DNA of 64,000 bases, taken from Schmidtea polychroa (taxonomy: Eukaryota). Below, piece after piece: positions 1-17,475 of this stretch; the stretch's first letter is position 1; every line of letters begins with the position of its first letter. The stretch lies in assembly GCA_044892525.1 (NCBI GenBank), contig CM097887.1:111268397-111332396 (forward strand), read 5' to 3'. The notes under the pieces are model-generated. The model saw only the letters and a program-made list of their open reading frames with translations. It did no database searches and was not told the origin of the DNA. Position numbers and translations under genes: made by a program.

Positions 1-2
1 CG

Positions 3-2732
3 GAAGCCTTCATAATCTTAATAGATCTATTATCATATGAGGATAATAGGGAGATAGGAAACATGTATGACGGGTTATTAACTGGAATCAAAGAGAAATT
101 AATAACAATTACTGGAATACTAATTGCATGGAGGAACCCGATCAAAAACGATTATATGGTAGATATAAACGAAACATTTACCAAAGGAGAAAATACCTTG
201 ATGAGGGAAGCGATGAGAGGACATCACCTATTCGAAATTCCAAATCAACTACTACAACGTGGCATAAAATTTTCAAATCACAAAGACGAACAACTAATCA
301 GAAAACGAATTACCAACTTCGAAAAAGCTATATCTCAATTTACCGATAAAGTACAAGTAAAATTTTGGGAAACCGTGAGTGTATTATATATGATGGAGAA
401 TATGAACAACATTCGAGAAAACTACCTAAGTATTATTCAAGTGCTTACGGCGGAAGAACGCATTAACAGTTCAAACAAGTAAAAGATAAAAATAAAGAAA
501 GTAAAAACAAGAGAGTCTGAGGAACAAGTCGATCAAATAATAACCGATATAGCAACAACAAGTAAACCAAAGATAATAAACTCAGACCAGGAGATAATAA
601 TACGCAAAGCCAAAGAGGTGTTCTTTGAAGAAATGCAAGATCTATCCGATGAAGCGATACTAGCAAAAATAACAAAAACAGTACACACCTACGCAAGAGA
701 CCAGACCACAAATCTAGACATAGAAAAAATAAAAACATTTATACCACTAGCATTCACCTTACCAACAAAAGACTCAAGAACACCATTACAACAAGCCATT
801 TTAGCAGCAAATGAAAACAGAGCAATAACCATCATAAGAATCCTTGGAGACTTCGGAGAAGAATCTAATGCAAAAAATGAACAAGGAGAAACAGCAATAA
901 TGTATGCAGCCATAACAAATATACACCCGAAAACATTACATATACTACATCGATCGGGATCAAGACTGGACGAAATATCAAACGAAGGAAATTCTACCAT
1001 GGATTGGGCAACCATACAACCAAACTTGGAAATGATTAGATTCATTTGTAAAAATGCTACAAGAACTGAGGTAGAAAATATCTGTAAAAACACGTCACAG
1101 TTCCAATGGAACACGATACGGATGAACTTAGAAGCCATGAAGTTATTGCTAACATGGAAAATACCGCAAAGCAATAAATATGCAATAAATATAAATGAGT
1201 TCTACGAAAACGGAGAAAATGCTATGGTTAAAAATACACTAACAAAAGGAGGAACTCCGAAAATCATAATGATCGTATTGAACAGAGAAGACCTCAAATT
1301 CACGCAAAATCTAAACGAACAAAAGCGGATTGGAAAACATCGCCGTATACAATTGAGAGAACTGGTAAAAGAATGGAATAGAAAGAGACATGTAGCAACA
1401 GGCAGAAAAGAGTTTGAATTCGAGGCAAAATTAGCAAGGAATAGAGTGTTAACGGCATATCGCAGATTATTGAACGACATAAATGTCGAGGACGACATTT
1501 CAAACGATAGCGGGGGAGATAAAGACGATAAAGACGACGATGATAATGAACAAGGTCGAAACGGGAATGGAGAGAAAGAGAAATCAGAGGAAAATAATCA
1601 AGGGAATAACGACTCAGGTATAAAAAAGGAGGAAAATAAACCGGGAAGCCGAACAAAGGAAGAGGAAAAGACGAATAATGGGAAACAGAGGGTATGCCCA
1701 CTTTTTACCAACAAGGAAATGGAAACAAATATGATGGTAATGATACTCATACTAACAATGATAGAAATGATAACAGCCCACGGTGGAATGAGAACGATAA
1801 AAGAAGCCAAGGAAACGGAAAACAAAGACAACAAGGAGAAGGAACTAAAGCAAGAAAAGAAGAAGCAAGTACGAGAGCAACAATGGGATTTAAAAGAAGA
1901 ATGGGATCTAAAAGAAAGATGCATACTAGGAAGATGTATGTCGAGAGCATATCGGAGACTAGTATTAATAAATGAAGATACAGAACCAATAACGGAAGTA
2001 AGAATACAAGAAGCATACCGGAATCGAGACGGGAAGAGAATAACTAAAGTCAAAGGGAAGGAGGTACACCTGAGAAAAGGAGGTGAGGTAGTGATAACGC
2101 AACTCCAGCCAAGAAAAGAACACAAAGTCTGCATTTCAAGATTAGGACCGGGTGAAGACTGTCTACAATATGTAACACAGCAACAACCTCCAAAAGAATA
2201 CACAGTATGCATCTGGAGAAACGATACAGCGAGAGAATGTCGACGATACCCTGGGAAAAGAGGGAGGAAAAGAAAAATCAATGACGAAAAAGATGAGCAA
2301 GGAAAACGCAAGAAAACCGATGAGAAATATCAAGACAATTATGTATCCGAGGAGGAGATGGAGAAAATACAAAGAATGGCAAAGGAAGGTATGAACGAGG
2401 AAATAGCAAGAATACGAGGAATGATAAAAGGAAATGGCAAAGACGGTAATCTAAAAAACACAGAAGCAATATCAACAATAACGAACAAGGAAAAAGCAGA
2501 AATTATAAGCATAAAACAGATGATGTGGATCAGCGGCATAATAATAACAGGGGCCTTTTTAATCATAACGGGGGAGACAATAAAAATAATCAAAGATAGG
2601 CGGCATCGCGGAGAACTAGAAATGGCCAGAATAAGAAATTTTCAACATCGTGTAAAACGACCAAGTAATATCAAGCAGGAACAGTGGGTGGAGGCCTGGA
2701 ATGCTCAGCGCCCTCCAAGCCCACGTATATAG
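3..2732 (+). CDS. Accessory ORF A (5'-partial): ankyrin repeats + acidic linker + internal signal/TM + FN3-like ectodomain + TM; one in-frame TAA at 480-482
   Basis: Frame 3 is open from base 3 to 2732 except for a single TAA, so ORFs 63-482 and 618-2732 are in the same frame. Ankyrin-like units: DINETFTKGENTLMREAMRGHHLFEIPNQLLQRG, RTPLQQAI, GETAIMYAA, GNSTMDWA. Hydrophobic segments: MMVMILILTMIEMITAHGG and MMWISGIIITGAFLIITG. FN3-like motif VVITQLQPRKEHKVCI and an NDT sequon. Confidence 0.7.
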
Positions 2733-2900
2733 AAAGGATTATGACTGTATATAGATTGTAAAAAGTAAGTAGATAATATTTATTTATATAACAGTATGAT
2801 ATATTTTTATATAACCGCGGTATCAATATTATATAACGATGGGGATAAATAATATAAAAATAAAATTGGATAAGGGTTGAAAAGTATATATAAATTAAGA

Positions 2901-3275
2901 ATGGAGCGAATAGGCGAGGAAGTAAATCACAGTACAACAACCGAGGAGATGTGGAAACAACAATGTGCAATGTTAACTCAAGTGATTTCGAACTTACAGG
3001 AACAAGGACTCGCTGTACAAAGAAGCTTAGTCGAAAGTTTAAATAAAGGCTTCAGTTATGTAAGAATAATCGAAGACCAACGAATAAAAATAGAACAAAT
3101 GCAGCGAGAGATAGACCGAATATCACGATACAGCCAGGTGCAAGAAGAGGAGTTATTAAGAATCGCGGAAGAGATGGAGCGAGAGGAGATAGAAGACTGG
3201 TCAGAATGGTTAACCAGCAGGGAAGAGGGCGGACAAGAGGCGACTCTTCCAGCCAATAAATATAACCTAAAATAG
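2901..3275 (+). CDS. Accessory ORF B, small coiled-coil protein (124 aa)
   Basis: ATG at 2901. E/Q/R-rich heptad-like sequence with the same codon bias as the flanking cassette ORFs. Confidence 0.6.
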   Translation: MERIGEEVNHSTTTEEMWKQQCAMLTQVISNLQEQGLAVQRSLVESLNKGFSYVRIIEDQRIKIEQMQREIDRISRYSQVQEEELLRIAEEMEREEIEDWSEWLTSREEGGQEATLPANKYNLK

Positions 3276-3348
3276 CAATGTAAATAACTGTAAATAAAAA
3301 TACGAAACTGTACCAGTAACGAATATATGTATATATATAATTATAGAA

Positions 3349-4736
3349 ATGGATAAGCGACAACGAGAAGAATTCAAAGAAATTGTTGAACAAGTCAGAA
3401 AGTCCACCACAATTCGAATACACAACCATGTAACGTGTGGGATATGCAAGAGCTTATTAAGAGAACCTCACCAAACCAGATGTGGATGCAGAATGTGCAG
3501 AGAATGTGTAGAGGAGATAATAAAGAAGGGACCACAATGGTGCCCAGTATGCAAAGAAACAATGATAACAAGTTTGGGAGATACAAACGAAGATAAAGCA
3601 GCTGTAAAAGATATGTTGAATGCAAACCTAGGATGTAAAAACACCCCATGTAATTGGCGAGGAGTGATATGGGAAGTGAGGCAACATATGGAGCAATGTG
3701 AATATAAAATCAGTCAATGCAAACGTTGCCAAGAAGAGATTAAAGTCAATGAAGAAGCAGAACATCAAAGTCGATGCGAAGGAAGACTGGAGAAATGTGA
3801 GTATTGCGGAGAAACCGACACCTGGAAAAAACTAATCAGTCAACATCACAACATACAAGAGGAGAAAGTGTGCACAGAATTCAGAGGAGAATGCCCCAAC
3901 AAATGCGATAAACCCGGAGTAATAAAACTCGCTCAACATCTAAAAGAATGTGAAAGAAAAAGATAACGTGTGTGCTAGGAAAATGGGGATGTCAGAAACA
4001 ATTACACCGAGGGGAATTACCCCAACATCTAGCAGAAAACGTATCAACACACGCGGAAATATGGTCAACGGCATTACAAGAAAACGAAAGGAAAACCGAA
4101 AACTTAGAAAGAGAAATAATCTCGCTAAAAGCGTTGGTAAAAGAACTATTAGAAGAAAAGGAAGCATTTGAAGAGGCAAGAACAAGTACAAAGATACAGA
4201 CAGATCTAGTAGAAACTAGCAACATTATGGTGAAAGAACTACATCAAAAAGTAAGCGAATTAAACCTCAACGAATTAATACCAACGGCTCCATACATATG
4301 GAAAATAACGGGAGTAAAAGAGAAGATGCAGAGAGCGAGAAATGGAAAGGATACAACATTACTAAGTCCAGCATTCTACTCATGGAAAAACGGGTATAAA
4401 ATGAAAATGAAAGCATACCCCAATGGGGATGGGAGTGCATACGGAACGCATTTCTCAGTATTCTTCTTGATGTGCAAAGGGCTATACGACGAGTTAATAG
4501 AATGGCCATTCAAAGCAAAAATAGACCTCGCAATGATGAACTATCAAAGTATACATGAACAGAGTTTCCATACAGCGGGAAACCTCGTATGTTACCAAAG
4601 GCCCTTGGAAGAAGAAGGACCAGCAACTGGAGCACCGAATTTCATCCTACAGCGGAAAGTAGAAGACATGACGAGAAACGACACTATATACATAAAAATA
4701 GCGGTGAGGCGAGACGGGAAGAGTAGGACTGAGTAG
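3349..4736 (+). pseudogene. TRAF: TNF receptor-associated factor (RING + TRAF zinc fingers + coiled coil + MATH), intronless, split by a 1-nt frameshift
   Basis: RING CGICKSLLREPHQTRCGCRMCREC...CPVC, TRAF zinc fingers (CKNTPCNWRG...HMEQC), and a MATH domain (YIWKITG...SPAFYS...GYKMKMKAYPNGDGSAYGTHFSVFF...EWPF). Adding one A to the A5 run at 3957-3961 fuses the two ORFs as ECERKKITCVLGKWGC. Confidence 0.92.
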
Positions 4737-4950
4737 AGAGACGAATAATTTTGTATATACTAATTGTAAATATCGGCGTATATATCCAGTAAAATATTAT
4801 ATAATAGTGTAGAAAACCCCAAATCTACTAAAGGTAAACTTAAGCGTAAAACTCCTAAAACAACTCCTATAACGAATTGTAACAATAAATAAATAATAAA
4901 ACAGATATAGACGTACAACGTTGAGTTAATGATATCGTTATTTAGACAAG

Positions 4951-5988
4951 ATGACTCAAGATCAAACGGAAGCCCCAAATAACGAAATAAACATCAGTAG
5001 AATACATAGAGAGAGATGGGCCAAAGTAATGATACAATTATCAAACCAAACACGAAATTACCTCGAAGAAGCGAGAGAATGGGAAAACCACCAATTCCAG
5101 TGGTTAGTACAGAATTTACGGGCGGAGGCCGAGGCCTGCAAAAGAGCCGCCAAATGGTCGGCATTAGAAAATACCAGGCAAGAGGCGCACGGGCATTACC
5201 TGAAGCAGCTGGTACAGGAGTCAAGAAAAAGACTAACGGATGAGAATAAGAAGCGGGAAGTAGAAAAACAAAAGGAGGAAAGAAAGACCCGCCAACTATT
5301 AGCAGAAGCTAGAAAGTGGAAAAAACAACATCGAGAAATCCAAAAAGAGATGAGAGAATTGCCGCAGAGATTGAAACACGAGAGTGATCAAGGAAAATGG
5401 GAAGAAAACCTGGATCAGAAAGAAGAGTTAAGAAGGCTCCGGAAAGTAGCAGCTAGAAGTCAAACCTGGCAGACCAAGGCCATGGAATTTGAAAGGCATC
5501 TGGCCATGAAACTGTCTATAAAGGAACAGGAAAATACCGCCATGGAAGAGATGATCCTGCAACAGTCAGGTAGAATCGTCGAACTCGTAAACAAGGTGGC
5601 AGATCTTGAAAGAGACAATAACGGCTATAAGGGGGCACTAGAACAAAGGAATATAGTGCTAGCCGGTAAGAATAAGAAATTGGAAAACGAGAGGAAGATG
5701 TATGACGAAAATATCAAGAACCTCGAAAAGGAGATCAAAAAATGGGAGAACGGCGAAAAAGCGGAGGAGTTAGAAAAACAGATAGAAGTAAGAGATGATG
5801 AAACCAGGTATCTGACATACCTGTTAGACGAGGAACTCAACGTGTCAAGAGCGCTAAGAGACGAAGTTCAGGAGCTTAGAGCACAGATTCCCCGGTACTA
5901 CATCCCATTTGATCCCATCGCAATCCAACTACAAACGTCAATAGACAGCGATGAAGGGTATGTAGGCCAGGAAGAAACCTTTGTATAA
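4951..5988 (+). CDS. Accessory ORF D, long coiled-coil protein (345 aa)
   Basis: Intact ORF, E/K/R/L-rich helical sequence with a short non-coiled C-terminal tail. No recognisable family. Confidence 0.7.
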   Translation: MTQDQTEAPNNEINISRIHRERWAKVMIQLSNQTRNYLEEAREWENHQFQWLVQNLRAEAEACKRAAKWSALENTRQEAHGHYLKQLVQESRKRLTDENKKREVEKQKEERKTRQLLAEARKWKKQHREIQKEMRELPQRLKHESDQGKWEENLDQKEELRRLRKVAARSQTWQTKAMEFERHLAMKLSIKEQENTAMEEMILQQSGRIVELVNKVADLERDNNGYKGALEQRNIVLAGKNKKLENERKMYDENIKNLEKEIKKWENGEKAEELEKQIEVRDDETRYLTYLLDEELNVSRALRDEVQELRAQIPRYYIPFDPIAIQLQTSIDSDEGYVGQEETFV

Positions 5989-6038
5989 AGATAAGGTGAA
6001 AAGATAAAAAATATAAAAAGCGGGACCTGTATCCCAAC

Positions 6039-6067
<29 letters not shown>
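6039..6067 (+). repeat. Poly(A)29 tract between ORF D and ORF E
   Basis: 29 consecutive A, flanked by imperfect direct repeats CGGGACCTGTATCCC (6021-6035) and CGGGACTGTAACCC (6093-6106). Confidence 0.9.
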
Positions 6068-6070
<3 letters not shown>

Positions 6071-6183
6071 ATTAGTACGATAAAAATATTTACGGGACTG
6101 TAACCCTGATTATATAAAATTACCTATAAATGTATAAGTATAAGCCGCACTGTAGCGCACTATTAATTGTAAATATTGTAGAA

Positions 6184-6894
6184 ATGAAAATAGAAGAAAT
6201 ATCCACCATGACCGAGCTAGAGGAGGGAGAAATTGAAATCGAGGAAGTGGAGAGGAAGAAAACTATCAAAGAAGAATTACAAGAAGAGAAACAAGAAAAC
6301 GAAAGATTAGTAGAAAGGTGGAGAGATAATCGAAAAATGATTAAAGTATTGAAAAGAGAATACACCTTGCTAGAAGAAGTAAAGAAAGAAGTAGAGGAAG
6401 AAAATGAATGGCTTCACGAGCAAGGAAAGCGAGGAAGAAATTGGGAGAAAATTGCGGAGGAATTATGGCAGGAAAGAGCCAGTCTCAAGGCTAATGAAGT
6501 GATTGAAGATTACTGGAAAACGGAAGCGAGGAAACGACAAGAAACTATCAGGGGTCTAGAAAACCAGCTGGGAGTAAAAGTGCAGGAAAGTGCAAAAATG
6601 GAGAAATGGATCAATAAATACCGAGAAATAGAAATAAAACGGCAGAAACAAAGCCCAAAGACGAACGACCCAGAAGAAAATGATTTCCTACAATTGGAGC
6701 TGGAACGGAACTTGGAGGAGAAAAAGAAGGAGATAAAAACCTTGAAAAGAGAGATAAAACACTTGGCGGACAAGGTCCAAGAGAAAGATAGGCAGCTCGA
6801 GATGTTGCCGGAACTCCGACATAGGGTCATTAAAGCAGAATCCAAATTAATGAGAATCCGAGAGAGAGACCCTAAAAAGAAACGACAAAATTAA
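6184..6894 (+). CDS. Accessory ORF E, coiled-coil protein (~236 aa; alternative start 6130)
   Basis: Intact E/K-rich heptad ORF. The ATG at 6184 follows a TAG acceptor-like site, and the charged composition begins there. Confidence 0.65.
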   Translation: MKIEEISTMTELEEGEIEIEEVERKKTIKEELQEEKQENERLVERWRDNRKMIKVLKREYTLLEEVKKEVEEENEWLHEQGKRGRNWEKIAEELWQERASLKANEVIEDYWKTEARKRQETIRGLENQLGVKVQESAKMEKWINKYREIEIKRQKQSPKTNDPEENDFLQLELERNLEEKKKEIKTLKREIKHLADKVQEKDRQLEMLPELRHRVIKAESKLMRIRERDPKKKRQN

Positions 6895-6953
6895 AACCAA
6901 CAAAAAGCGATGTATATAAATATGTATAAAATAACTAAATGTATATCAGTATC

Positions 6954-7613
6954 ATGAGAAGCCAACCGATCATTGTAACGCTGATGATGATGATAATTCT
7001 TGATCTAACCCGACGACAGCCAGTGAAACCCCAAATCGAACGGGTTCGAGACAACAGAAAACCCCATCAGAAAATCGAACCAACAACCCCATCGTGCACC
7101 TGCTCAAATGCCATAAGAACCAATCTTATCAATAACCTTCGAGCAACCCGAAACTACATCAACAACATCAGAATTATGTGTAATCACAACCCTATGTGTA
7201 AAATCATCGATAAAAGAATTCTGGACCAAATTCACCAAGTCGATCAATTAGAACAGCAGGTCCAACACCAAGAAACACAAAATCCACCCGATCAAGTAAA
7301 AAGCCCGAATGAAATAAACCACACCTATGAACTCCTCTATGTGGTAATCGCCGAGACCACCTTAATCTCAATAGTCACCCTGCTAAAAATCGGTAACCTC
7401 TGCAAAGTTTGGAAGAAAAGTCACCCCGTACCAGAAAGATCATCTCGAAGATCCCAAGAAGCTAACATGGCTGAAGTAATCCATGAAAACCTCCGTCAAC
7501 GAACCTCCATCGCAGAAACAGTCAGACCATCCGCAAGTCGCCGAATATACTACAACATCGAACCCCAACAACCAAATCCCCCATCATCAACGGCAACTGA
7601 ACACCAAACATGA
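6954..7613 (+). CDS. Accessory ORF F, small type I membrane protein in the env position
   Basis: N-terminal hydrophobic signal (IIVTLMMMIILDL), Cys-containing helical ectodomain (CTC; CNHNPMC), TM segment LLYVVIAETTLISIVTLLKI and a cytoplasmic tail. It is the last ORF before the PPT-like tract. Confidence 0.65.
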   Translation: MRSQPIIVTLMMMIILDLTRRQPVKPQIERVRDNRKPHQKIEPTTPSCTCSNAIRTNLINNLRATRNYINNIRIMCNHNPMCKIIDKRILDQIHQVDQLEQQVQHQETQNPPDQVKSPNEINHTYELLYVVIAETTLISIVTLLKIGNLCKVWKKSHPVPERSSRRSQEANMAEVIHENLRQRTSIAETVRPSASRRIYYNIEPQQPNPPSSTATEHQT

Positions 7614-7829
7614 CACTTCGAACTGTAACTATTGACAAAATTCTTGATGTTTTATTATATTATGATGAAACCGGTCACCTTAAGTGGCCACTGCTTGTCT
7701 ATAATTGTCATTTTCTCTGTTTAATTAAAATAATTTTTGTTAATTTAATTCTATGTGTGTGTGGATTTTGATTGTGAGATTAGTTGTTATACTGAAAGCA
7801 GGTACGATTCGAATGTACGATATTATGTG

Positions 7830-7867
7830 AATTGCGGGACGCAATTTTAACGGGCCCCGGAGTGATT
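7830..7867 (+). other. Gypsy-type 3' hairpin and degenerate polypurine-tract region
   Basis: Perfect 7-bp stem AATTGCG/CGCAATT with a GGA loop (GGGACG core), followed by TTTTAACGGGCCCCGGAGTGATT directly before TG at 7868. The tract is not purely purine. Confidence 0.55.
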
Positions 7868-8365
7868 TGTTGGGCCAAGCTCCGAAGGTGTTGGAAAAAC
7901 GAACCTAGGAAGGGATAGAGTAAAATAAAATAAAAACATATAAAAATACGAGAAACATAGGAGGAAACAAATTAAATATCCAGAAAGAAATTAGAATAAA
8001 ATTAGAATAACTAAATAAAATAACAAAACCCCTAAAGGAAAAATAAGACAAGAGGGAAGGCACCTAATAAACGACAGTAAAAGAAAAAAAAATAAAATAG
8101 CAGAAAATTTAAGAAAAATGAACAAAAGTAAAAGAAGAAAAACAAAATAAAAATAAAAAAATCATCCATAAGGCTAATTAAAACAAAAAAGGAAGTTACA
8201 ATAAAATAGCAACAAAACCACAAGAAAAACAGATAAAATAATAAAAAATAGGAAAATAAATAAAATAATAATAAAAATAGGAAAAAGTCATTAAAATATA
8301 CCTGATTACATTAAAAAACATAAAAATCATAATAAACAATAATATTACATGCAAGTCGCGTCCTG

Positions 8366-8389
8366 ATTGGACGAAAAGTAATATATAAA
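8366..8389 (+). promoter_or_regulatory. LTR Pol II promoter: inverted CCAAT box and TATA box
   Basis: ATTGG at 8366-8370 and TATATAAA at 8382-8389, followed by a hairpin-forming region (8403-8436). Confidence 0.6.
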
Positions 8390-8709
8390 GAGCGACAAAA
8401 ATCTGTAGAGTATCATTCTAACCCGAAACTCTACAGGTAAAATTTTATCCTTTATAATATCATTCTAACCCGAAACTCTACAGAAAAGCTAGGAACCACT
8501 CACAAGCACAGATTATTGAACCATATTCATTTATCGGATAACATATACATTGAACGGAGATCGAATTCAGCTCAGTCGAACGAGTCTATCTAAAGAAAAC
8601 TTATATTACTTTGATCTAACACCTTCGGAGATTTTTGGTAAATTATGTTTTAGATTTTAGTATGATGATCTAAATATTTATTATGAATTTAACAAGTCGT
8701 TTATAATCC

Positions 8710-8750
8710 AATAAATTTCATATTTTAAACGAAGGTGTTGCTTTCTCTCT
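8710..8750 (+). terminator. Putative LTR polyadenylation signal with GU/U-rich downstream element
   Basis: AATAAA at 8710-8715 followed about 20 nt later by GGTGTTGCTTTCTCTCT. Confidence 0.4.
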
Positions 8751-10708
8751 ATGAGGCTGGCGACGGCGTCCTCTGGAATCCGGGTATGATGCAGTTGGGT
8801 TTTTCGAACGTCCTACGGAGAGGAAATTTACGAATATGAACTCGGGAAATTGAAGTGATAGAACTAGCCCAGGATCCATATGAATTTAGAAACTAAAGTG
8901 ATTACTTAATGAATACGAGATTTATGCTAACCAGAGTCATCATGCCCGGATTTCAAATGTCGTGGTCGCCAGGTGAACATTTATTTAATTGATTTTCTCA
9001 TAATTCCATTATTTCTATATTGATTCACTGAATAATTAAATTGTATTGTTGCACATTTATTGAGAATGGAGTTGCGATGAGACGGGTCGAGTCGTCCTTC
9101 ACACCGGTCCAAGAGCAGTGGGCAGAGATGCGTACTGCCTTGGGTGGGTTGTGAGGAGCGAGGAAACCATGTGAGATTTAACAAATCAAGTAAATGATTC
9201 TTTCATCGAGTGTAATCCACCCATCTTAGTCGTCGAAAACCATCCAATGCAGAAACTTCTGAGTGACATAGTTTGAGTCAACGATACCTTGGGAACTCCC
9301 GGAGGCATACCATTAGAACTATCATCAGCCTTGTATCCAATCACGTCATTAATAATCTTTGATTTGGAGCCTTATTCGTCTTGCATTGAGAGAAGCGACT
9401 GCTAGAACGTCTGCCGGAAGGAGTTATTAATTTCGAGTTTTTACGAGAGATTCTCTGTACTAAGCCCATTTCGTATCTTACAATCTGAAGGTGCTTTGGA
9501 AGCTACACCGCCGGGAGGTTAGCGAATAGATCCATCGTCTTGCTTATCGTCGACTCCGGGGGGACTTAATCATCAACCGACATCTAGCCGCTGTCATCGA
9601 TAATAGCCGTTTTAGAGATGAATGTAAACATCTCTAGATAGTAGATTTAAACACTGGCTATGAGTCCGAAGGAAACGGTCGCCAGCGACATCGGGTGGGC
9701 GTAGTAGACTGCCGGGAAATCGGTTGATAAGATATCTGAAGCCTCAGTCACGAGCGAACGAGTTGACAGTTTTTATCTCAAAACCAATTAGTGGAGCAAA
9801 ATCTAAATATGGAATCGATCTTATCTAGTAGATTCGCAATTTAGCCCACACAATTAGATTCACGAGTTTTCTATGACACCCTCTTAGATTTCCACCTATC
9901 TAGAAAGTCAGCCAGCGATGTCATGTCTAGTGTGCAGATAGTGGATAAATTTATCTCACGATTGTGTAACGGTAGACCAGGAGATGGTAGACTACATGTC
10001 CAATCCGACAGTGAGATTACGTCATACTGAATAGTAGAATGTTCTACCTAGTCCACGACCACAGGCTGAAGATAAATCATACAATGCATGCATACGAACA
10101 GACCTGACAACATCTGCTAGCCTACCTCCAGGGTAAAACTAATACACCACTACTCACAAACAAGCGTCGTTATGACGACATTTATGGCGCAAGATTTAAG
10201 ATGATCAAATAGCAAATTATGATAAGACTTAAATTGAATTTTGCGGTTCTTTTATGAAGCCGATCACGGCGGTTTAAAACCCCAATAGTCACCCGTCATA
10301 CCGAACTATGTTTTTGTGACTTCACGAGTGCGAAATTTTACGAGTATAGTAGGACGGGGAGTGGGAATGCTATTACTAGGGAAGGATAATTATAACAAAC
10401 TCGACTGTGGTAAATTAATAAAAGCACATTAAATAAAAATGGCCAATTTCGGACAACAAACATAAATTCAAAGTTAGGATAAATGTATTATTTTGAGGAA
10501 GCCCGTTTTCTTTTTTTTTTTTTTTTCTCTATCAGTGTGGATGCTTGCAGACAAATGAGTGTAAATGTTGACCAGTGATATGGGTAAGTGGGTCATTGTC
10601 GAGTAGGATGATTGGAAATAGGGTAAAAATTGTAGTCAAAATTTGGAAACGACACTCCAACGATTTTTTTTTTAAACTCTACAATTAACAAAACGTCTTG
10701 ATCTTTAG

Positions 10709-11470
10709 ATGCCTGCTTCAACCGCTACGAACAAGGATCTCCGTCCCTGCTTCTCCTGCGCAGATAAAAACGCAGACATAGCACAACTCCACTCATACAT
10801 TGGGGCACTGAAAAAGAGAATTGATCTCTATGAAGGCACGTGGTTCTCCCCGCCACAGATGAAGGAGGAGCGCAGTAAAATTCTTCGGTTGGAACATTGC
10901 CGGGACAGCCTCCTAGAGGAGAGTCGCTGTCAAAGACTGACGATCAAGGCGCAATCGGAAGCCCTCCACAAGGTCTACACGGAGGCAGAATTGGCCAAAC
11001 GGGTACGAGAATTTCCCGTCTTGGAGGCCAGCAATGTTTTTCCCACTCACCACCAAAGTACTTCCACCGCTACAACCAGTTGTCTGGGGCACGGCTCCTA
11101 TCTGCCGCCTGTTCCAGCACCGGCCTTATATAGTTGTCAGCCGCCGGTAGGTGGTCCATCCGACCCTATCTTGGCTCCAGTTTTAGTGACATCAGTTACA
11201 GCACCCGATGCGGACAACCATCAACCACAGCGTAAAAGAAAACGGCCGACCCGAGCCGCCAAAAATCAAAGACGTCGAGATGCAATCGCGGCTCTCGAGG
11301 CGTCGTTATCTGTGGCCAAGTCTTCTCTGGAGAAGTTATCGTCAATACCCTCTACCCCCACAAAGGAGATATTCCGGGTGATCTCGCCCGAAGGGGTCCA
11401 GCTCGTGCGAGACCGTCGGTTACCGGTCGACATCGACGAGATGATCGCCGAAGGGGAAGTTTTCCCATAA
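10709..11470 (+). CDS. LTR-encoded 253-aa protein (CxxC, coiled coil, Arg-rich motif, acidic C-terminus); intact copy
   Basis: Intact ORF preceded by TTTAG. Homologous ORFs at 32975-33748 and 43587-44360 share LE(H/R)CRDSLLEESRCQRLTIKAQSE with mostly synonymous differences. Confidence 0.85.
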   Translation: MPASTATNKDLRPCFSCADKNADIAQLHSYIGALKKRIDLYEGTWFSPPQMKEERSKILRLEHCRDSLLEESRCQRLTIKAQSEALHKVYTEAELAKRVREFPVLEASNVFPTHHQSTSTATTSCLGHGSYLPPVPAPALYSCQPPVGGPSDPILAPVLVTSVTAPDADNHQPQRKRKRPTRAAKNQRRRDAIAALEASLSVAKSSLEKLSSIPSTPTKEIFRVISPEGVQLVRDRRLPVDIDEMIAEGEVFP

Positions 11471-14270
11471 TTGGACGTGTCGTTGACCCATCTCTCATTC
11501 CACGCGATCAAGCTCAACAATCTTTATAAACGACTTAGATGATGCGTGTTGTGTACTCTCCTACGTGTTGTGATCGGAAATTTGTGTTCATATGTATCCT
11601 CAATTTCATTAATATAATCATAGTATTCGTTGTGTTGTCCCGTAAAAGTTATAGAGTGATGAGTTATGACTGGACGAATGGATTGGAATGATCATTGGAG
11701 AATGTGGGTCGTCCCCTTGGACCAGGGTCGTACCGAGAATACATGACGAGTAGGGGTAAGACCTTCTTAGGCACCGAGGAACCTGAACTGAGAGGGGGTC
11801 CGTAGTAGTCCTAAGGCAGGGGCTCACCTGCGGACCAACTCCGACCCGTGTGAGCAGTACCAACGTGGGTAGATCATCACGGGCTCACATGAGGGAATAT
11901 TTGTAAATCATGCGGGTTATGTGGGGGAAGGGCCCCGAGCTAAAGGAACATGATGCCAGCTGCACTACGAATGTCCGTTTGACTCCTCCCATATACGCCC
12001 AACAATAGTAATCGATAAAAGTGTAATTGTGATTGTCTCGAATAAAGATTATTGTGTTTGGTTGTTTAAATAAATTTCAGAAAGAACACAAAGGAGTCAG
12101 ACCGTGATACCGACTTGCACAAAATAACTAACACTAAAATGTAAGATGAAAAATATAAGATCATGAAGATTGTTGAAGAACAACCGAATATGACGAAGAA
12201 ACCTCTTCATAGTATGAAACCTCAAACCTTAAACAAGGTCTTGGAGAACAAAAAAGATTCTCTCGCAAAACTGTTTGATTACAGCTGAAGATAATTCTCC
12301 CTTTTAGACGAATATTTTGGATGTAGTCAGTCATAATGTCTGTAGAATAAAGTGAAAAGTAGAATGATTGAAACCAGTTTTCGTTCAACGGGTTTTGTCA
12401 AAAGGACAGAATTTTATTGGACTAAACCCAGTAAAATAACATTTTAAATTATCCTTTTGTTTAAATTAATAATAATTAAAAGAGAAAAATAAATGGTCAT
12501 CTGAGAAGACATCAAATCAAAGAGCAGTTATTTAAAATAATTAAAAACACCAATTAAAACTAAAGTAAAGTAAAACAAAAATAAGAGATAAATAAAACAA
12601 AATTAATAAAATCAGTATCACATTATGTATAACACACGAAACATATTTTAAACGCATAAAACTACAAAATAAATTGTCGAAAAAAGACAATAGCAAAAAA
12701 GTATCACCTTATCCATGGGAATCCTTAGAGGTTATTAGCCTAAACGGTGGTAAATGTTCTCAAGTCACCAGCTGATGGCAGTATCAGAGTCTCCATATGA
12801 GGCAGCCGTACAGTCATCTCTGACAATTATAATATTAAAATAACCGCTCGACATCATCTAAAGAAGGCCACGGCAATCAGTCAATTCTACAACCATGCCA
12901 TTCCGTTAATCATCAACCTAAGCTTGAACGAAATGGTTTTCTCCTTTACAGTCAATGCCAACATCTTCAACCTTGATGATTTGTTGGCCAATGTCGAAAG
13001 AGAGGTTATAAGCCCATCTGGAACTTTGTGTGTTGAACTAATTCATTTTGTTATGTTTTGTCAATTATTATTCATTAAATCTCTATCGCTGTATTGCTTT
13101 GATTTTCATTTTTTCTAAGTTACTAATAGATATATTATAAGTAATAATTATCATCTTCATCTTAACAGATAGGTGGTATTCAGGCCTCAAGAAGGAATTA
13201 ATATATCCCGTAAATTTTGAGGACCACAAATTTCGATATGTTATGACAATACCAACTTATCGTCTCTAGCTTTGGCGTAAGACCTTTTATAGCCCGTCCT
13301 GAACCCGTTTCAGATCGTACGATAATGAATAGTTCTGGCTTACCTGCTTATCGACCTCAATCTATTATGTACAATTCCAACATGGCCATCGATTTCGGTC
13401 CTCCAAGCTGATGGCTATTTATTATCGCTATTTATTTTAATTTGGAATACCATATAATCCTTATCGCACGATTCAGTAGGTTATGTTTTATATTTGTTTA
13501 TGTTTTTTTGTTATGTTTTGTTTCATGTATAATAATTTAAATCAATAATTTTTCTGATTCATTTTTTCTTAATTTAATTTAGTTATTATTATGTAAATTT
13601 TATGAATGCACTTGTCCAAAAATTCGATTTGTAAAGATATATGCTGTAGTCGGATGACAATCCACACCATTAAGCTGGGGGAGCTCAATGAAATTCTTGC
13701 GAAGTCGTGTGGAGTTTGGTGCCTCAATTTGAAAGTAAGCGGTACTCGAATTCCACTTAGAGAGGACTTTAGTGCAAATCACCTCCGTGACCATTTATAG
13801 TATCAAAATATGCATATGAAAACCAGATCAATGATGAAAACCCACATTTTATCCTTTCGAGCGATTTCCAGCGCAACCCAGAATACAAGAAAGTTGTACT
13901 GCTCGATACCCGTTGAGCTTTTCTCGCTGGTGTTGTCCACTTGTCAGTGAGAGGGCTCCAACCGATAACCGTGATTCCATGCTCGAACCCGGAGTGCTTC
14001 TTATTTACGAGCTTGAATTCAAATGTTTGTTCAATCTGTTGATCTCCCTTAGCTGCTATTTTCGTTTGTACTGTTGGGGTTGGGCTCGTTCAAAGAGCAA
14101 TTTCATTAACCGTATAGAGACTAGGATGATAGTTATAATAATAATAATATGTAGATAATAATAAAAATTATTAAAAATAGCATAGATATAATAATAGTAT
14201 TATTTAATTACCTAAAATAAATTAGAATTAGAATTAGTACATTTAAATTACTATATATAGATAGTATGCT

Positions 14271-16131: not shown

Positions 16132-17475
16132 CTCACTATAGGACATTGATTTATCATAAGGACATTCAATAAGCTAAAAATTTTCATTTTTAAATCAAAT
16201 TATTGTCAAAATGTTCGAAGATATTTCAGAAGCTTCTTCAGAATCAACAATTCCATTTCAAGAAATTCATAGAAATGTGTAAGTTTTTCATTAAACTTTA
16301 ATTATTTTTTAAAAATCGATATAGAATTACCATTAAAGATAAAGAAAGAATCATTAAATCCATGGAAGATGACCATGATTATTATGAATTAGGCCGTATT
16401 CTTGGAATTAAGCGGAATACAATAACCAGCATTATTTTGAAATATAAGAAGACTGGAATTTTATCCGCAGGAACAAGAGGAGGCAATCGACCAACAATTA
16501 TCACAACAATTATTGGCCAGGAATTATTGAACTATGTCGAAAGAAATTATTATTCGACATTAAATCAAATGAGATTGTTTTTATCTACAAATCACAATGT
16601 AGAAATTTCCACAAAATCAATATCCAGGTACCTGAAAAATCAATTATTAACCTTCAAAAGGATCAGGCCTTGTGTGGAAGAAAGAAATTCAGATAGAATA
16701 TTGGATATTCGGCAGACATATGTTACACGTCTGCTTGAAGAAGGTTGGAGGAGCAGTAAATCTATTTATATAGATGAATGCTCTTTCAATACATGGACAA
16801 ACAAGAGATTCGGAAGATCTCGAGTAGGCACTCGAATTTACAGCAATGTGCCAACAAATCGAGGTCCCAATATTTCATTAGTTTTGGCAATATCCAAAAA
16901 TGGGCCAATCCATTCACAAATCATCATTGGCTCTTTTAGAAAGGAATCATACCAGTCATTTATAACAGAATTGACTGAGAAACTGAATGGCTCTGGATTC
17001 ATTTTGATACACGATAATGCATCCATCCACAATAATGTATTATCTTTGAACAATCACATAGAAAAGTTGCCTCCATATAGTCCATTTTTGAACCCCATCG
17101 AAAGTGTGTTCAGCAAGATTAAAAATGGGGTAAGGACTAAAGTTTCCTCGACTAATGGATTTTCCAGGATGAGTTTCAATGACAGATTTATCGCAATATC
17201 CCAAGCAGTTATCGAGGAACTTAGCAAACCAGATTATAGTAATTTGAAAAATTACTATAATCATATTAAAAGGTTCTTCCCTAAATGATTGAAGAAGCAG
17301 GATATTTTAGGTGAATTCTGAAAAATGTAATGTATATTATAATAAATAATTAAATATCTTACTTCTTTATTCATTATTTTTAAAAAAATCTTAAAATTAA
17401 CTAAAATCCAGAACAAAGCTTATTTGACAAAGCTAAATGAATGTCTCATTTATGATAATTAAATGCGCTTTGGTG
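16132..17475 (+). mobile_element. IS630/Tc1/mariner-superfamily DNA transposon
   Basis: Transposase gene flanked by degenerate inverted ends (CATT.A.TTATCATAA...GACATTCA.T.AGCT on both sides) and TA dinucleotides at 16130-16131 and 17476-17477. Confidence 0.75.
16211..17321 (+). CDS. Tc1/mariner-type transposase, two exons (16211-16278, 16325-17321), premature TGA at 17286-17288
   Basis: 46-nt GTAAGT...TAG intron joins in frame. N-terminal HTH region. Catalytic motifs IYIDECSF, IHDNASIH and PPYSPFLNPIE. The frame continues LKKQDILGEF after the TGA. Confidence 0.85.

Follow-up and report, generated by a model that had tools for sequence, protein, structure and literature searches.

Predicted splicing of accessory genes from a copied LTR exon in a giant Burro-type gypsy element of Schmidtea polychroa

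Complex retroviruses such as HIV-1 and the foamy viruses are transcribed from one long terminal repeat (LTR) promoter, and their main 5' donor is spliced to alternative acceptors located just before the accessory starts, with a poly(A) signal close behind the donor. Foamy viruses also have an internal promoter for accessory genes. The adenovirus major late unit uses a common untranslated leader of short exons, which is joined to many acceptors distributed over more than 20 kb. Passage through spliced RNA normally removes introns. Giant gypsy-like LTR retrotransposons of more than 30 kb, named Burro/GYPSM1, have been described from planarians (PMC6431247). In the excerpts of that description used here, the long frame encodes gag zinc knuckles, an env-like fusion domain between gag and protease, protease, reverse transcriptase, RNase H and integrase, and ankyrins; the elements also carry a TRAF/MATH domain and accessory open reading frames (ORFs), and the same excerpts are silent on accessory-ORF expression and describe no LTR intron (PMC6431247). 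The present analysis concerns a Burro-type element of Schmidtea polychroa. The window, which is a stretch of 64,000 nucleotides (nt) of the forward strand of contig CM097887.1 (positions 111,268,397 to 111,332,396; assembly GCA_044892525.1), starts inside this multi-copy element, and the features of the element given below in window coordinates are on the plus strand. Comparison of copies suggests that the accessory genes are probably translated from separate messengers, cis-spliced from a short ATG-free LTR leader. A fuller proposal, somewhat less likely than not, is that a gypsy element runs an adenovirus-like unit: a single capped exon of 25 nt would serve about eight acceptors spread over 30 kb, splicing would extend to the packaged genome, and each round of reverse transcription would restore the first intron of the LTR, the tail of that intron being a fresh copy of exon 1.

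The whole element is 30,562 bp long, has TG...CA ends and is flanked by a 4-bp target duplication, and its size including the long LTRs is that of a Burro element (>30 kb). The 3' LTR (7868..12004; 4,137 bp, TG...CA) has the same sequence as the 5' LTR 26.4 kb upstream, with 0 differences over 4,137 bp, which indicates a very young insertion. Pfam domains in the long frame follow the order zf-CCHC, Monjiviricetes_fusion, RVP, RVT_1, RT_RNaseH and rve, with the ankyrins last, as in Burro, and ankyrin, RING and MATH/TRAF domains are all present in the element. The polyprotein comprises approximately 4,730 codons in one frame interrupted by four in-frame stops in this copy, compared with approximately 4,900-5,100 amino acids (aa) for Burro. 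Since identical LTRs are here combined with four stops, the very young insertion was probably mobilised by the proteins of another copy. Five ORFs lie 3' of the polyprotein (starting at 2901, 3349, 4951, 6184 and 6954), one lies in the LTR (10709) and is therefore also present in the 5' LTR, and a RING ORF follows the 5' LTR. Motifs resembling BIR, BCL2 and dUTPase are listed for certain Burro families, some of them detected by HHpred only, in the excerpts cited (PMC6431247); none was found in Pfam scans of the ORFs of this copy, and a BIR was found instead in a sister Burro family of the same genome. By the features tested, the element is a Burro-type gypsy element, which shares with the published excerpts size, domain order, ankyrins, TRAF/MATH and accessory ORFs, and differs in that MATH sits in a separate 3' ORF (PMC6431247). 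Beside the LTRs, neither a purine tract nor a tRNA primer site could be clearly recognised; the sequence following the 5' LTR (L003:5580-5600) shares TGATT and a GGGCC/GGGGCTC-like stretch with the sequence preceding the 3' LTR.

The predicted layout of LTR promoter, donor, acceptors and poly(A) signal is the same as that of complex retroviruses. The element differs from them in its gypsy-type domain order, with the env-like domain before the protease in the same frame and no separate env after pol as in Retroviridae, in having more accessory ORFs, each behind its own spacer, and in its genomic RNA, which is predicted to be spliced whereas retroviral genomic RNA is unspliced. With the adenovirus late unit it would share short leader exons joined to many acceptors and possibly alternative 3' ends; adenovirus, being a DNA virus, needs no intron retention through reverse transcription. 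In these respects the element would operate in the manner of a complex retrovirus or of the adenovirus late unit, yet by gene order it is not a retrovirus. A search of literature that did not include the original Burro paper returned no paper on splicing or expression of Burro accessory genes, and a strict all-term search with incomplete coverage returned none on an LTR intron rebuilt by reverse transcription.

The strongest evidence for splicing is found in the LTR. Its promoter (8366..8388) consists of an ATTGG box and a TATA box (8382), and the predicted exon 1 (8412..8436), which is 25 nt long and free of ATG, begins 30 nt past the TATA box and ends at a donor. This donor, CAG-GTAAAA at 8437, had been pointed out in the initial annotation and is well supported, with the GT kept in 19 of 20 copies and the donor ending a copied 25-nt exon. 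The predicted intron 1 (8437..8483) measures 47 nt from GTAAAA to CAG, and its terminal 25 nt (8459-8483) duplicate exon 1 exactly. The arrangement was surveyed in 65 loci, of which 58 had a recognisable promoter and unit; seven gave no promoter-plus-unit match and were left out, including L112, which shows a degenerate double unit. Exon 1 followed by GTAA is repeated 45-51 nt further on in 51 of the 58 LTRs, and the remaining seven are single or otherwise altered. The two units are identical over 24 nt in 45 of the 51 pairs, and these identical pairs represent 15 versions with a median between-version difference of 13/24; private changes are seen in both units at L012 and L024. The repeat begins 30 nt (+/- 1) past the TATA box, where the start of transcription is expected, and ends at AG|GT. 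Length variation is located just ahead of the second unit, and in L079, L085 and L103 variants behind the second unit are short of a few letters up to the next AG. The spacing of 45-51 nt falls within the short-intron peak of S. mediterranea, given as 45-85 bp in the part of the source consulted (PMC13594981). When both strands of all loci then collected were scanned, the pattern was recovered only at these promoters and as one 17-nt repeat. At L086, GTAAG recurs behind the second exon copy and is likely a third copy, and at L106 the donor is followed by a 28-nt remnant with no copy.

The simplest account of an exon copied across 15 versions is that spliced RNA is reverse-transcribed, which would be expected to produce it; recombination between tandem units could give the single forms, but not the exact borders. 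Transcription would start at 8412 of the 5' LTR, with the donor at 8437 being used. The packaged RNA would be capped at 8412 and spliced from 8436 to 8484, losing only the 47-nt first intron, so that its 5' end would equal the second unit and the sequence following it, and the first strand transfer would land there in the 3' LTR. The transfer would overwrite the second unit with exon 1, and the intron would be supplied by the unspliced 3' end, such that the daughter LTR regains both intron and donor. For accessory messengers, the donor of exon 1 or of exon 2 would be joined to one of about eight acceptors, namely those of the LTR ORF, the RING ORF, the polyprotein leader and the five 3' ORFs, placing each ATG first on its own message.

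The predicted exon 2 (8484..8637) is likewise ATG-free and ends at a second donor, GTAAAT (8638), which has counterparts in LTR subtypes B and C; exons 1 and 2 as predicted lack ATG in four subtypes. The intron that would follow (8638..8734) is AT-rich and includes an AATAAA (8710-8715) that is kept in three LTR subtypes, and its 3' end is predicted from the corresponding position in subtype C. In that subtype, copies in which the GT is missing were sought and were located at three places, two being the LTRs of a single element and the third, on a small contig, possibly representing the same insertion. These copies lack approximately 103 nt, exactly from the GT of the second donor to an AG, and the second donor had been recorded before the loss was found. 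The loss is what removal of a spliced intron would leave and would show an AAG acceptor to be usable, which is supporting evidence but not decisive. A further donor-like site, TGG-GTAAGT (10582..10589, donor 10584), had also been put forward as an LTR donor; only 6 of 20 copies, which belong to a single LTR subtype, have a mapped counterpart, and it was rejected as a general donor. An internal donor at element position 6319 was rejected as well, the GT being absent in 6 of 8 copies.

The initial annotation had proposed that each accessory ATG is preceded by an AG within 0-5 nt, in seven of seven cases. All seven contexts and both donor-like sites are present at the positions it gave, and the count taken at face value corresponds to p=0.0075, a value which is valid only under blind choice of the ATGs. 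The choice was not blind, as in-frame ATGs at 6130 and 6939 without AG were passed over for 6184 and 6954, and the ATG at 1719 is not a gene start. The background proportion, calculated for positions 1-7620, was 82 of 165 other ATGs (50%) with an AG ending 0-5 nt upstream, and overall it was 50-53%. ATG 6184 was rescued, since 11 of 20 copies have the frame closed 3 nt upstream, which makes 6184 their first ATG. The AGs are retained across 20 copies, but these are 91-100% identical and the retention is not independent evidence.

A blind set was therefore compiled for this element from first ATGs only, with the 5' RING ORF added and 1719 excluded (n=7), in which YAG precedes 4 of 7 starts (p=0.019). 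A second family, identified through a BIR search and a nested fragment, is a divergent Burro with six 3' ORFs that include TRAF-like and IAP-like genes; with first ATGs only and two LTR ORFs included (n=8), AG precedes 8/8 starts (p=0.006) and YAG 6/8 (p=0.0006). In the two families pooled, YAG was found at 10 of 15 starts and at 65 of 374 other ATGs (p=5e-5), and TTNYAG ends 0-5 nt ahead of 6 of 15 ORF starts and of 0 of 374 other ATGs (Fisher p=1e-9); the TTNYAG test was chosen after the flatworm motif was known and the families share some homologous genes, so that the p values overstate the case and the 15 starts are not fully independent. UUNYAG (TTNYAG) is the motif at spliced-leader (SL) acceptor sites of parasitic flatworms and is often shared with cis-splicing, according to the portion of the source consulted (PMC12582326). 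An acceptor-like site ahead of the polyprotein is retained in 8 of 8 copies, and the 507-666 nt behind it contain no ATG, against 8.3 expected by chance in this copy, as a spliced 5' leader would give. Acceptors are thus likely present ahead of most accessory ORFs.

The same motif is what would be seen if the transcript were cut and polyadenylated in each spacer and a host SL trans-spliced to the next acceptor, with the LTR donor serving the LTR introns only. This operon-like arrangement is unlikely, although several observations fit it. The spacers are 59-214 nt long, near the peak of approximately 100 bp given for Macrostomum lignano operons in the excerpt consulted (PMC8629364), and the UUNYAG acceptor lies near the start codon as reported for flatworm SL sites (PMC12582326, in part). 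TGTA is about five- to sixfold enriched in the spacers, with 19 occurrences against 3.8 expected and 22 against 3.7 in the second family, and TGTAHATA occurs 8 times against 0.2 expected and 7 times against 0.2, respectively. Cleavage factor Im and Pumilio proteins bind such words, which may mark alternative 3' ends or translational control. AATAAA, which had been cited as a feature of the spacers, is indeed present there, but its enrichment was rejected, since the counts of 5 (4.7 expected) here and 7 (5.2 expected) in the second family are at chance level. The element further differs from flatworm SL operons in its strong, conserved upstream cis donors (8437 and 8638 of the 5' LTR), SL use being favoured, in the cited part of the source (PMC8629364), where no upstream donor is present. 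Among the assembled contigs covered, no SL read was seen. Cleavage in the spacers could uncouple upstream cis donors from the acceptors, and spacer cutting would then need to be suppressed for genomic RNA. Flatworm SLs end in ATG, as stated in the excerpt (PMC12582326), and, joined at the 16 sites, such an ATG would match the reading frame in only 5, the number given by chance; ahead of the ATG-free polyprotein leader it would create a short upstream frame. The earlier suggestion of alternative cis-splicing or SL trans-splicing can thereby be narrowed, with cis-splicing favoured and no RNA join observed for either; given an LTR promoter, ATG-free exons, donors that look used and acceptors at the ORFs, a cis join needs nothing more.

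The spacers were also inspected for signs of an internal promoter for each accessory gene, in which case the AGs would be incidental. Of six window ORFs, three (2901, 6184 and 6954) are preceded by TATA-like words positioned to start transcription ahead of the ATG, but in the second family only 1 of 6 is, and an ATTGG-plus-TATA pair at usable distance is absent from all spacers. Internal promoters would leave the TTNYAG enrichment unexplained and are regarded as quite improbable.

The possibility of no processing at all, with re-initiation or internal entry on the long RNA or with barely any expression, and with AG as part of an A/G-rich start context, was considered in relation to the RNA material. 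This consisted of 12 runs, all of them assembled contigs, whose RNA origin is a guess, none being on record as RNA. In runs X1, X6, X7 and X2, the 15 listed joints out of 55 were all from X2, which behaves like DNA, and included no join at a predicted site. In X1 and X6, no GT-AG join at the predicted sites and no leader-like end was found among the 15 of 25 joints and 12 of 246 loose ends listed, a blank that counts neither for nor against splicing. A single contig, from a run that may be RNA, spans spacer 2733-2900 unspliced (2358-2959), and this, the AG background of 50-53% and the blind count in the window are what could be expected without processing; the unspliced contig is equally expected from genomic RNA, from nested messengers or from DNA in the run, and T-rich YAG motifs are far above chance on a strand with approximately 18% T. 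The absence of processing seems very improbable. In run X6, three contigs carry a T run before window position 7734 (minus strand), 10 nt from ATTAAA, possibly the 3' end of an antisense LTR RNA.

Processed DNA copies were sought by means of a leader-plus-ATG pattern, which gave one match, an ordinary LTR variant; no match was obtained either with patterns altered at a base preceding the TRAF and LTR-ORF acceptors or with a pattern for loss of intron 2 in subtype B. Few such copies are expected, since these messengers would lack the primer site. Three internal deletions in other copies were rejected as spliced products, as their ends show microhomology and not GT-AG.

Finally, short capped LTR RNAs ending at the AATAAA near 8710 could donate exon 1 in trans as a leader made by the element. 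A short first exon, a strong donor and a nearby poly(A) signal are present in thousands of candidate LTR places (6,194 LTR-ORF candidates in a first look). Rfam gave 0 matches in 1-12100, subtypes B and C lack the Sm-site-like word that precedes the second donor in this subtype, and an extra assumption is required that cis-splicing does without; this is the least probable of the explanations considered.

Cis-splicing from the LTR leader remains the favoured reading, and a number of points weigh against it. In the blind set of this element, AG precedes 5 of 7 starts (p=0.22), which is not significant. ATG 2901 and one start of the second family have AAG only, and no YAG lies close to one LTR ORF of that family. 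A leader joined to any 3' accessory ORF was not seen, either in RNA contigs or in DNA copies, and the introns required would span 21-25 kb and bypass numerous other acceptors. TGTA and TGTAHATA look like elements of 3' ends or of the 3' untranslated region and equally fit an operon. The loss of intron 2 is one event with AAG at both ends (3-nt microhomology), for which a deletion would give the same product. The BIR-bearing family showed no exon copy, and the step of intron regain is consequently not general to Burro; in favour of an LTR donor, several LTR subtypes of that family have a TATA box with a GT(A/G)AG donor-like site at a fixed distance, approximately 70 nt on. Overall, the observation of the initial annotation is partly confirmed and its interpretation partly supported: splice-resolved expression is the best-supported reading and its main donor was correctly chosen, while the seven-of-seven AG count, AATAAA and donor 10584 do not support it. 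The case is instead based on the second family, the TTNYAG motif, the copied first exon and the one element from which exactly a GT-AG intron is missing.

The 3' portion of the element is arranged as follows. The 3' end of the gag-env-pol frame (3..2732) contains ankyrin repeats followed by signal-like and membrane-like hydrophobic stretches; in this copy it is broken by an in-frame stop at 480-482, leaving an open frame at 483-2732. The AAG-GAA-ATG at 1719 (1714..1721) lies inside this frame. It was rejected as a separate start, since the 72 codons upstream of it are stop-free in all 20 copies and the corresponding hydrophobic stretch in the second family lacks a methionine immediately ahead of it; the region is probably an internal signal sequence. 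Spacer 1 (2733..2900), with TATA-like words, ends in AAG (AG 2898-2899), a weak acceptor candidate, ahead of an ORF of 124 aa (2901..3275) with no family above cut-off. The candidate acceptor TTATAG (3341..3346) is 2 nt ahead of ATG 3349 of a TRAF-like gene (RING, then MATH; 3349..4736), which is in two frames here, split near 3954-3966, and is a single frame of 462 codons in 8 of the 9 other copies listed. Candidates TTTAG (AG 4944-4945) and AAG (4949-4950), within 4940..4950, precede ATG 4951 of an ORF of 345 aa (4951..5988), which is charged, coiled-coil-like by eye and without a Pfam family. TTGTAG (6176..6181) is situated 2 nt ahead of the 236-aa ORF starting at ATG 6184 (6184..6894), also without a Pfam family, and TATCAG (6944..6949) lies 4 nt ahead of ATG 6954 of an ORF with signal-like and membrane-like stretches (6954..7613). 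This version of the last ORF maps in 4 of 20 copies, and an alternative version starting with TAG-T-ATG is found in 7 of the 9 copies listed. The versions of the last accessory gene (window 6544-7665) and those of the LTR interior have been swapped independently among copies, which suggests frequent recombination between subtypes. In the LTR, a candidate acceptor TTTAG abuts ATG 10709 of a 253-aa ORF (10704..11470, ORF 10709-11470), and this TAG-ATG is kept in 19 of 19 mapped copies belonging to three subtypes with differing upstream sequence. The LTR ORF has a basic stretch and no Pfam family, and is intact in most of 150 scored places. The RING ORF of 159 aa (L003:6089-6568), between the 5' LTR and gag, is preceded by TTTTAG-AT.

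Other elements were encountered in the course of the analysis. A Tc1/mariner-like transposase (DDE_3) is located at window 16279-17288, with a GT-AG intron-like stretch of approximately 48 nt ahead of its ORF. The search with the env-like domain recovered mostly an abundant smaller LTR family (L036-L037, L040-L041, L048-L049, L052-L053), with an env-like domain and a frame of more than 3,300 codons and no accessory ORFs; one copy of it is nested in a divergent Burro element, and the search was of use in locating nested divergent Burro pieces. At L001:215-7427, pieces of a DNA-polymerase-B-like ORF, recognised by eye, adjoin a further Burro-like LTR, in which the copied exon is present in a separate version.

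Burro elements are present in thousands of copies in planarian genomes and may influence host cell death through their TRAF-, IAP- and RING-like genes. Burro RNA increases on knock-down of PIWI (PMC8532177). A common leader, if true, would provide exact junctions to be sought in planarian long-read data and would tell element-made from host TRAF and IAP messages. The copied exon points to a way in which an intron could be retained by a retroelement despite the passage of its genome through spliced RNA.

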